In this document: positions 22,903-47,563 of the stretch, piece after piece
Layout of the letters: each line of letters begins with the position of its first letter
How positions within the stretch are numbered: position 1 is the stretch's first letter
Assembly: GCA_022072085.1 (NCBI GenBank)
Contig: JAJVII010000018.1
Location: forward strand, 114,496-178,495
Reading direction: 5' to 3'
Length of the DNA: 64,000 nt
From: Phycisphaerae bacterium
Lineage (GTDB): Bacteria > Planctomycetota > Phycisphaerae > JAJVII01
Made by a program: the position numbers and the translations under genes
The notes under the pieces: generated by a model
Seen by the model: only the letters and a program-made list of their open reading frames with translations
Told to the model about the DNA's origin: nothing
Databases searched by the model: none

Positions 22903-23907
22903 TCAAATCTTCGCGACCGTTTCCCACTTGCCCGACTTGCTGGAGGCGTAGATCGCCTCCATGATCGCGACCGCGTCGGCGGCCGCCGCCAGGTCGTCGG
23001 CCAGTTCCGTGGGCGTCACTTCGCCCTTGATCGTCGCAACCAGCCGGGCCAGTTGCGTCGGCTTCTGGTCGCCCGGGGCGACGGGCACGGGTTCGGTCTT
23101 GGGTCGGCCGACCGCGAGGTCGCCGATCTTGGGATCGTTGTAGATCGTGCCGGTGCTGCCGGTGATCTCCAGCCCCCCGATGCCGCCGGTCTGGACCCAC
23201 GACGCCTCGACCGTGCCCAGCACGCCGCTGGCGAACTCGAGCAGGGCGATGCCACAGTCATCGACGGCCGGGTAGACGCCGCTGGCGTTGCCGATTCGGC
23301 CCATCACGCGGCTGACCGGGCCCAGCAGCGACCGCAGGGCGTGGACGGCGTGCGTGCCCATGTCCATCATGGCCCCGCCGCCAGCCAGCGCCGGGTCGTG
23401 GAACCAGGCCAGGTCGGGCGAGTGGAACCACTTGCCGTAGGCGGCGTGGTGGGCGTTGCGGAACCGGGCGTGGGTTACCTTGCCGATCGCGCCCTCGGCC
23501 AGCAGCTTGGCGACGCCGCGGATGATCGGGCGGAAGGGCTGGAAATACCCCATGTGGACCGGTGTCTTGTGCTTGCGGATCAGGGCCATCGCGGCGGCCG
23601 CGTCGGCGACGGTCGTGGTGAAGGGCTTCTCGCAGAAGACCGCCTTGCCCGAGGGGACCGCGGCCTTGAGCAGCGGCAGGTGCCGCGTGTTCTCGGCGCA
23701 GATGATGAAGCCCTGGATGTCGGCCCGGCCGATCGTGGCGGCCAGGTCGTCGGTGTATTCGGCGCCGAACTCCGCGGCGTATCGCCGCCCGCGGTCGGGC
23801 ACGTCATCCCAGATCGCGACGACCTTGCAGTCGTCGCGCCCGGCGGCGTCCTTGAGGTAGCCCTTGGTGTGGATGTGCGCCGCCGACAGCAGTGCGAGAT
23901 TGATCAC
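22903..23907 (-). CDS. Gfo/Idh/MocA family oxidoreductase
   Basis: VFCEKP, GGGAMMDMGTHAVH. Confidence 0.92.
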   Translation of the reverse strand: MINLALLSAAHIHTKGYLKDAAGRDDCKVVAIWDDVPDRGRRYAAEFGAEYTDDLAATIGRADIQGFIICAENTRHLPLLKAAVPSGKAVFCEKPFTTTVADAAAAMALIRKHKTPVHMGYFQPFRPIIRGVAKLLAEGAIGKVTHARFRNAHHAAYGKWFHSPDLAWFHDPALAGGGAMMDMGTHAVHALRSLLGPVSRVMGRIGNASGVYPAVDDCGIALLEFASGVLGTVEASWVQTGGIGGLEITGSTGTIYNDPKIGDLAVGRPKTEPVPVAPGDQKPTQLARLVATIKGEVTPTELADDLAAAADAVAIMEAIYASSKSGKWETVAKI

Positions 23908-46377: not shown

Positions 46378-46463
46378 TGCCCGGGACTGGAGTCGAACCA
46401 GCACGGGGTTTTAACCCCACCAGGCCCTCAACCTGGCGCGTCTGCCAATTCCGCCACCCGGGC
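46378..46463 (-). tRNA. tRNA-Leu (anticodon GAG)
   Basis: GCCCGGG acceptor stem, CCAGG-TTGAGGG-CCTGG anticodon arm, long variable arm, GTTCGACTC T-loop; CCA not encoded. Confidence 0.97.
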
Positions 46464-46647
46464 GGGCAATCCTTCAACCCCGGTTGAAGGATTGCAGAGC
46501 AGGCGAGCAGGGGAACAGTTGAACAGGCGAAAGGCGACACCAGGCGGCCGACCGCGGTTTACGCGTATCAGCCGGCCCGCCTGCGGTCTCCTGCTCTCCT
46601 GTTCCACTCACTCACAATGCTGCAAAAGCAATCCCGCAGCCAAGGCT

Positions 46648-47017
46648 GTCGGAACGGGGCATTATAACCGATTCGTTCTGTCCGCCAAGACCTAACCCCG
46701 GCGGGCCCCGTGTGTCTTAATAACTGTTCTTCCGAGGGCCCTCAACGCGAGCCCTCGGAGAGAACCGAAAGGTTCACGTGAGCCGGCACAACGACCCGGC
46801 CGGCCATGCGGCGATCCCCACCCCACTCCGCCTCCCCCCGGGCGGAAAGCCGCACCCGGCCGGCTCGTTTGAGACTCCGCCCCGCAGGGAAGCGGGGATC
46901 TGAAATGCCGGGCCTCGACCGGCTGAGCCGCTCGGGGCCCCGACGAAGCGGGTTCAGTCGGAACTTGGAGTTCCGACGACCAGGCGCCGGCTGTCGGGGG
47001 CCGGCGCCTTTCTTCTT
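46648..47017 (+). ncRNA. Candidate large structured non-coding RNA, family not recognised
   Basis: About ten mutually compatible nested stems, a GAAA tetraloop and a terminal hairpin with pyrimidine tract; no credible ORF. 5' end uncertain. Confidence 0.6.
46982..47017 (+). terminator. Intrinsic terminator
   Basis: AGGCGCCGGC-8 nt-GCCGGCGCCT then TTCTTCTT. Confidence 0.7.
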
Positions 47018-47229
47018 GCGCCCGGGGCGGTTGCAGCGGCAACGCGTCGGAGCGGAGCATGGATTGTACGGAGGGGACGGATTTCACGGAAACAAGGCAG
47101 GTTGGGACGAGGAACCGTTGCCGGATTCTCCCGTCGGCGTAATCGGTTTCAATCCGTGCCATCCGTGTTCCCCGGCCGCACGGCCTTCAGGAAGCGCCTG
47201 TCGGCCTGCTTTTTTGTACCCCCAACCCC

Positions 47230-47257
47230 TTGCCAGGACGCTGAAATCGCGTATACT
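47230..47257 (+). promoter_or_regulatory. Sigma-70-like promoter of rpmE
   Basis: TTGCCA-16 nt-TATACT, 60 nt upstream of the ATG. Confidence 0.65.
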
Positions 47258-47317
47258 GTGGCGTTCCGCGTCGGGTCTCGCGACAGGTTCGCCCTTGCAA
47301 TCGCCGGAGTCGGAAAC

Positions 47318-47563
47318 ATGAAGGAAGGCATCCATCCCAAGTACGTCGAGTGCATGGTCCACTGCGCCTGCGGCAGCAACTTCAAGACCCGCGCCACGGT
47401 CGAGAAGATGACCGTTGATATCTGCTCGGCCTGCCACCCGTTCTACACGGGCAAGCAGAAGCTGATCGACACGGCCGGCCGCGTCGAGAAGTTCCAGCGG
47501 AAATACGGCTGGGGCAAGAAGCAGCAGGAGGCCGCCCCGGCTGCCCCTGCCGACAAGGCTTAG
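47318..47563 (+). CDS. rpmE: 50S ribosomal protein L31 (zinc-binding type)
   Basis: [32 protein letters not shown]. Confidence 0.98.

Follow-up and report, generated by a model that had tools for sequence, protein, structure and literature searches.

Staphylococcus aureus RNAIII is a large, multi-hairpin RNA that encodes a peptide and whose C-rich loops pair with Shine-Dalgarno regions; 6C RNA is a short two-hairpin RNA, and 6S RNA, which binds RNA polymerase holoenzyme and serves as template for product RNA, forms an extended rod that is mostly double-stranded, opens into a large bubble at its center and is closed by pairing between its 5′ and 3′ ends. Lineage-specific sRNAs are expected in principle. 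The C-rich loops of 6C (RF01066; 6C/B11 of Mycobacterium tuberculosis) are described as binding mRNA directly, without Hfq or ProQ (PMC6486639), and sX13 of Xanthomonas, a three-stem RNA with apical C-rich loops, is described as an Hfq-independent repressor of mRNAs with G-rich motifs at their ribosome-binding sites (PMC3771888). Hardly any regulatory RNAs are known from the Planctomycetes-Verrucomicrobia-Chlamydiae group, for which the table of a 2022 review counts 8 distinct annotated sRNAs, versus 345 for Proteobacteria (PMC9029176).

Here we describe a locus of ~350 nt on the plus strand (~46671-47016) of a 64,000-nt stretch of DNA from a Phycisphaerae bacterium, the whole of which we call the window. 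This locus is very probably a real, functional gene for a structured non-coding RNA that is absent from earlier records. Like RNAIII, the candidate is a large multi-hairpin RNA with C-rich loops, but it has no conserved ORF and no homology to RNAIII. Its likeness to 6C lies in a high-GC host and a hairpin loop of at least six cytosines, here an invariant CCCCCC loop that is predicted to be unpaired in an organism in which Hfq was not found. It differs from 6C in its length of ~350 nt, its six or more hairpins, its occurrence in a phylum other than Actinobacteria and its failure to match the 6C model at E ≤ 10; where two loops of at least six cytosines are the criterion for 6C, the candidate has a single C6 loop, joined in its relatives by a C5 loop. 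The logic proposed below for the candidate is the same as that of sX13, but the two are unrelated in sequence and family and differ in size and architecture, and we found no enrichment of G-rich targets for the candidate over a reversed control. In size and degree of structure it also resembles 6S RNA (RF00013) and Ms1, which are abundant, highly structured RNAs of a few hundred nucleotides.

Results

The tRNA-Leu-rpmE intergenic region holds a strongly folded element

The candidate lies in a long intergenic stretch bordered downstream by rpmE (47318-47563), beyond a minus-strand tRNA-Leu(GAG) gene (46378-46463) that was called by both the Rfam tRNA model and ARAGORN. An earlier note had proposed an unrecognised structured RNA here on the basis of nested complementary segments. 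All 11 complementary pairs are present where they were placed, ten as perfect Watson-Crick helices and GTCTTA/TGAGAC with one G.U pair, and the terminator claimed downstream is recovered by a terminator scan as a stem at 46982-47009 with a T-rich tail. Folded as RNA, 46640-47020 has a minimum free energy (MFE) of −193.7 kcal/mol and a z-score of −4.95, and 46671-47016 has a z-score of −4.75; for neither segment did any of 100 dinucleotide shuffles fold as well. The homologous copies introduced below, G001 and L077, gave z-scores of −3.75 and −5.25. As a genome control, we took 24 segments of 346 nt at random from the window's own genome (G000, 67.8% G+C) and folded each against 30 shuffles, which yielded a mean z-score of −0.62 (sd 0.98, minimum −3.01). 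Because the element lies far below this control, we regard the fold as real and as exceeding what chance would give in a GC-rich genome; the folding test that the note had suggested thus came out in its favor, beyond both shuffles and genome windows. The minus strand of the element also folds well (z = −3.97), so folding energy is uninformative as to strand.

We compared the region with known RNA families. At Rfam 15 gathering thresholds, the sole match in the whole window was the tRNA. At E ≤ 10, the region 46460-47330 gave 12 weak matches, all far under their cut-offs and none of them to 6S or 6C; the best within the element, over the terminator, was to GA-cis (19.6 bits; cut-off 34.7). The genome carries genuine genes for RNase P RNA (C17:74816-75231, 243.7 bits), tmRNA (C32:48996-49347, 155.9 bits) and SRP RNA (C12:70411-70510, 78.7 bits), all above cut-off and all outside the window, in which none of these family models matches; we therefore rejected these identities for the candidate. 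Its 6S RNA gene is likewise elsewhere (C5:39779-39962, 57.1 bits; gathering score 46.4). The absence of any Rfam family match to the element agrees with the proposal that the RNA is unrecognised and is no tmRNA, RNase P RNA, SRP RNA or known riboswitch. Two overlapping ORFs (171 and 156 aa) matched no Pfam family, and no conserved ORF is seen: the homologues differ by indels whose lengths are not divisible by three. The literature searched, as titles and abstract openings, described no such RNA; motif lists in supplements, for example those of PMC2864571, could hold the motif under another name.

Several other features were observed in and around this region. Two structures stand upstream of tRNA-Leu: a perfect hairpin of 14 bp (46465-46496) and an inverted repeat of ~85 nt (46520-46606) that weakly matches a plant miRNA-precursor model on both strands. 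A minus-strand promoter-like sequence, TTGGCG-16-TATAAT, at 46688..46661 would give tRNA-Leu a structured leader of ~190 nt. Between the terminator of the RNA and the rpmE promoter, 47060-47175 holds a palindromic pair of short repeats of the CACGGATT(T/G)CACGGA type, also present at L011:497-590; their 12-mer GGATTTCACGGA is found 21 times genome-wide, and the family looks REP- or MITE-like. These repeats probably account for the difference between the RNA-rpmE spacer of ~300 nt in the window and that of ~85 nt on L077. Elsewhere in the window, ARAGORN called a 92-nt tRNA-Arg(tct) at 23660-23751 which has no Rfam tRNA match and reads as coding sequence, and is probably a false positive.

The element is conserved in one uncultured order

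BLAST against 60 relatives returned a single collinear match, in G001, the family's sole other genome; the matches in the other 8 genomes were short (E 0.001-0.009) and were judged to be noise. The element is present once in G000 and in one full copy in G001, and we thus rejected a dispersed repeat or mobile element, the outcome that the earlier note had named as one that would count against it. An exact 21-mer scan of contigs from 185,579 species found the G001 contig together with two chance matches, in a Gemmatimonadaceae genome and in Caulobacter, neither of which matches the covariance model described below. An 18-mer scan of metagenome contigs fetched at least 120 loci; among the matches listed, the conserved flanks occurred in one, the metagenome contig L077, and further metagenome homologues probably exist beyond it. 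Exact-pattern scans of viral contigs with both of the invariant blocks described below gave no match.

From the three sequences (window, G001 and L077) we built a covariance model, R1, of 263 positions and 77 pairs, which scores its members at 197.5, 259.3 and 250.7 bits, respectively. R1 matched both of the two genomes sampled from the order, and outside the order no match exceeded 26 bits in the class, phylum and relative genomes sampled. The best score among 149 other genomes of the class was 25.8 bits, in a piece of G081 whose sequence reads like protein-coding DNA, leaving nothing credible, and 150 genomes of the phylum reached at most 23.1 bits (E 0.009). Laxer filters applied to 37 relatives from the class also gave nothing credible, and with default filters the 28 rpmE loci of other families gave no match with E below 1.9. 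The RNA measures ~350 nt in the window, ~390 nt in G001 and ~425 nt on L077, and two blocks of ~31 nt are invariant across all three despite divergence of the rpmE protein, which is 73% identical between G000 and G001. The RNA is thus conserved in an uncultured Phycisphaerae lineage and constitutes a new family of an uncultured order.

Two further sets of sequences came to light in these searches. A second G001 match (C526, L149:1501-1663; 21.5 bits with R1) was rejected as a paralogue, having only generic GC hairpins in common with the RNA. It is a stretch resembling a 3′ UTR, directly after an 86-aa ORF, with one hairpin that bears a CUCCCC loop and a second that resembles the terminator stem of the RNA without a U tract, and it is probably unrelated. 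At least 20 of the loci fetched with the 18-mer (L025, L041, L043, L049, L052, L054, L056, L058 and 12 more) carry a different conserved non-coding motif of ~200 nt, which has the same C6 hairpin at its end, followed by a terminator-like stem CAAGGGCCGGAACC...GGUUCCGGCCCUUG. The C6 hairpin is common to the RNA and this motif because the 18-mer was the fetching pattern. In four of the eight such loci displayed (L041, L043, L049 and L052), the ORF that follows resembles, by eye, a 2-oxoacid dehydrogenase E1-alpha. No Rfam gathering match was obtained for L043, L082 or L096, and none of meaning at E ≤ 1 for L043; the motif may be an undescribed leader or a riboswitch candidate.

A row of hairpins with two invariant blocks

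The three copies have in common hairpins A to E and a terminator, preceded by a variable 5′ domain (46671..46765). In the window this domain is GC-rich, with two hairpins in the MFE structure (46680-46686/46700-46706 and 46726-46740/46749-46765), and in G001 and L077 it is AT-rich and aligns poorly. Hairpin A (46762..46775) has the form GAACC-GAAA-GGUUC, with counterparts CGGUCC-CCUGU-GGACCG in G001 and GCGGUCC-CUAGU-GGACCGC on L077. Hairpin B (46791..46868; helices 3-5), delineated from the MFE structure and comparison of the three homologues, rises from a lower stem of 12 bp through a middle stem of 6 bp and an asymmetric, C-rich internal loop to an apical stem of 7 bp closed by a CCCCCC loop; its three helices are paired in 94%, 75% and 100% of cells. 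Within it lies the near-invariant block CCCC(AC)CCCACUCCGCCUCCCCCCGGGCGGAA (46816..46847), in which a 2-nt indel is the sole difference among the three homologues. The block contains CUCC twice and CCUCC once and is anti-Shine-Dalgarno-like, and its C runs are predicted to be unpaired, with probabilities of 0.97-1.0, in every homologue.

Hairpin C (46869..46904; helix 6) has two pairs with double changes, and its loop reads CUCCCCCAC in G001 and L077, with a divergent version in the window. It is followed by hairpin D (46907..46940; helix 7), paired in 83% of cells, and by a conserved single-stranded segment, AAGCGGGUUC (46946..46955), identified from comparison and fold and reading GAGCGGGUUC in G001 and AAGCGGGAAA on L077; this segment is the 3′ strand of what the earlier note took to be the outermost stem. 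Hairpin E (46957..46977; helix 9), GUCGGAACU-UGG-AGUUCCGAC, shows three pairs with double changes and is paired in 93% of cells. The RNA ends in an intrinsic terminator found by scan (46981..47016), whose stem of 11 bp carries a G-rich loop and leads into a U tract. Its first 31 nt, the block CAGGCGCCGGCUGUCGGGGGCCGGCGCCUUU (46981-47011), do not differ between the three homologues, and helices 5 (the apical stem of B) and 10 (the terminator) show no variation.

The consensus, which covers hairpin A onward, retains part of the pairing scheme first proposed. The helices at 46731/46751, 46762, 46880/46892, 46907/46919 and 46957/46969, as well as the terminator, agree with the MFE structure. Others lost out to conserved alternatives: GCGG-AAAG-CCGC (46842) and GAGCCGGC/GCCGGCUC (46780/46859) compete with the conserved CCGCC/GGCGG and CCGGCCGG/CCGGCCGG pairings. 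The long-range stems thought to close a multi-junction (46694/46950, 46703/46933 and 46714/46870) could not be matched to equivalent stems in G001 or L077. The MFE structure of each homologue does contain some long-range helix around hairpins A-D, formed from different, non-homologous positions, and going by these predicted folds a multi-junction closure is thermodynamically plausible in G000 only. A switch-like alternative had also been suggested, built on a second GTCGGAAC at 46648; neither G001 nor L077 shows an equivalent of this copy, which adjoins the minus-strand promoter-like site at 46688..46661, and we regard the switch as coincidence.

In the R1-fitted alignment of the three sequences, 90.2% of 225 cells were paired and 12 of 77 pairs showed double changes. 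None of 500 column shuffles reached these values, and sliding the partners by 1-3 columns left at most 4 double-change pairs. With three full sequences and an alignment fitted to the model, this covariation is suggestive and would favor a conserved structure. Terminator U tracts are present in all three copies, and several G.U pairs are conserved that on the opposite strand would give A.C; together, these place the RNA on the plus strand.

The RNA is a gene of its own

In the window, the RNA is flanked by a DUF4349 gene and tRNA-Leu, with rpmE-prfA downstream, and L077 shows the same order of RNA, rpmE and prfA. In G001, the RNA lies on a contig other than that of rpmE, upstream of a small SHOCT-like ORF, and rpmE there has a different upstream neighbor and no such RNA. 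Adjacency to rpmE-prfA is therefore not constant, holding in the window and L077 and failing in G001, and the core-genome position claimed for the RNA applies to the former two. Since the G001 copy lies elsewhere, the RNA is not the leader of rpmE; it is a stand-alone gene with its own Rho-independent terminator.

The promoter scan placed a promoter-like sequence for rpmE, TTGCCA-N16-TATACT, at 47230-47257, between the terminator and rpmE, and the same TTGCCA/TATACT hexamers were read by eye upstream of rpmE in G001. For the RNA itself, G001 has a near-consensus promoter TGGACA-16-TATAAT, agreeing at 11 of 12 positions, ~130 nt before the start of hairpin A; on L077 a perfect TATAAT can be read by eye, although no full promoter emerged from the scan, and the scan of the window's plus strand found no sigma-70-like promoter for the RNA.

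Four RNA-library runs were among the runs holding part of 46600-47330. Three of them, from two studies, yielded contigs wholly inside the element (46671-46951): 155 nt without differences (46739-46893), 210 nt without differences (46742-46951) and 255 nt with one difference (46671-46925). The fourth, from a third study, yielded 107 nt (46790-46896) with 7 differences, a level of divergence that points to a relative as its likely source. Such contigs are silent on strand, ends and level, and DNA can occur in these libraries; the uncovered stretches 46504-46656 and 46963-47268 were not counted as evidence, as contigs and filters leave holes. The contigs are compatible with expression of the RNA gene, short of proof.

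A tentative model of action through C-rich loops

As to function, we tentatively propose, by analogy with known RNAs, a trans-acting sRNA that may mask G-rich ribosome-binding sites through its C-rich loops. The RNA would act in trans, by way of its C-rich elements, which are its most constrained parts and are predicted to be single-stranded, namely the internal loop of B, the CCCCCC apical loop and, in the relatives, the CUCCCCCAC loop of C. These elements, predicted to stay unpaired throughout and containing the anti-Shine-Dalgarno core CUCC/CCUCC, would pair with the G-rich ribosome-binding regions of mRNAs, and this pairing would block initiation of translation without Hfq. Exposed C-rich loop motifs, as in the class of C-rich-loop, Hfq-independent sRNAs, are present in the predicted fold: in each of the three homologues, unpaired probabilities of 0.96-1.0 were obtained for the C runs in both loops of B, internal and apical, and in the loop of C. 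Searches of G000 and of G001, which is 87% complete, found no Hfq. The 3′ end of the 16S rRNA of G000 is canonical (...GGAUCACCUCCUUUCU), and GGAGG precedes ORF starts about twice as often as its complement (1386 versus 682).

The target searches gave no signal over their controls. Antisense and sense BLAST matches were alike in number (1845 versus 1803) and in best score (38.2 versus 36.2 bits), and complements of the invariant C-rich block with up to 3 mismatches were found 26 times in G000 and 22 times in G001, versus 29 and 22 for the reversed-pattern control. The motif GGGGGGAGG occurred at 4 ORF starts only. One perfect 19-nt complement of the invariant C-rich block was found in G000 (C51:11205-11223); it belongs to a G-rich repeat dispersed through the genome and has not been retained in G001, and we judged it to be chance. 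This repeat, seen at G000:C51:10455-11545 and in no fewer than 11 further genomic locations, terminates in a GGGGACCGGTCCCC-UUUU hairpin, after which comes CGCGAAGACGCGAAAAGCGGACCAGTCCCC. A look-alike pair of sites, on C32 of G000 and C580 of G001, was rejected since the gene contexts differ, and no target was kept in both genomes.

A grander version, which we consider unlikely, is a large, RNAIII-like multi-hairpin master regulator of a Planctomycetota lineage, outside all known families, in which the invariant CACUCCGCCUCCCCCC would mimic the 16S 3′ tail, either masking Shine-Dalgarno sites on a broad scale or acting as decoy for a factor that recognises the anti-Shine-Dalgarno sequence, and in which the GGGGG loop of the terminator would kiss the C6 loop, giving a compact tertiary fold. 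The C6 loop and the G5 loop of the terminator, both of them invariant in the three homologues, could contact each other.

Alternative readings of the locus

Apart from masking of ribosome-binding sites, the invariant top of hairpin B and the invariant 3′ hairpin could be protein sites, making the RNA a decoy, sponge or RNP scaffold, a reading that we hold to be rather doubtful. The two invariant blocks of ~31 nt, one of which includes a terminator stem and loop unvaried in all three homologues, speak for it, and it would sit well with the lack of an mRNA target that stands out; a wholly invariant terminator and a ~30-nt block exceed the needs of a short seed, which keeps protein sites under consideration. 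The B block also appears to resemble the ...CACCUCC tail of 16S rRNA, so that it could, for example, decoy a factor that recognises this C-rich tail. Against such a role, however, no partner gene is linked at all three loci, where DUF4349, tRNA-Leu and a SHOCT-like ORF are the neighbors, and no known protein-binding RNA family matches. Sequestration of CsrA in the manner of CsrB or RsmZ is a reading that we find hardly credible: G000 and G001 both encode CsrA and the RNA is a multi-hairpin one, but there are just 6 to 10 GGA triplets per homologue with no conserved GGA loop motif, and among the 26 GGA triplets, 16 have an unpaired probability of at most 0.33 and 2 exceed 0.6. GGA triplets this few, and mostly predicted to be paired, argue against a CsrA sponge. 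Binding of RNA polymerase by a 6S-like or Ms1-like RNA is also highly improbable. A loose 6S likeness had been noticed earlier, and the size, the high degree of structure and the partial conservation of GAAGCGGGUUCA would agree with it; however, the canonical 6S gene lies elsewhere in the genome and the region gave no 6S match, and the consensus is a row of tandem local hairpins with variable long-range stems, rather than a rod with a closing helix and a central bubble.

Two readings dispense with a trans-acting RNA altogether. A cis-acting leader or attenuator, controlling rpmE-prfA via termination or read-through, is suggested by the position of the RNA directly upstream of these genes in the window and L077 and by its terminal hairpin. 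We consider it extremely improbable, as in G001 the RNA is elsewhere and rpmE manages with the same promoter hexamers and no such RNA, a promoter-like site separates terminator from rpmE in the window, and none of the 28 rpmE loci of other families carries a match with E below 1.9. The element could also be functionless: structured spacer DNA of high GC content, what is left of some element, or a terminator region whose folding is fortuitous; GC-rich DNA does fold on both strands here, as the minus-strand z-score illustrates, and palindromic repeats abound nearby. This is quite improbable for a single-copy sequence that occurs in both order genomes and a metagenome contig, at two genomic positions, with invariant blocks, compensatory changes and RNA-library contigs.

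Discussion

Judged by analogy, the reading that we favor is that the candidate would work most like the known C-rich-loop sRNAs, being several times larger than they are and a member of none of their families. The finding is modest in extent, comprising two genomes of one order, one metagenome contig and one metatranscriptome relative, all of them uncultured. Within this compass, the locus offers a concrete RNA to study, one that is conserved, probably expressed and under unusually strong constraint in its C-rich loop and terminator hairpin. Should ribosome-binding sites indeed be what its C-rich loops act on, G-C pairing without Hfq would reach a third distant GC-rich lineage, after Actinobacteria and Xanthomonas; if not, the invariant hairpins would point to a new RNA-protein partnership.
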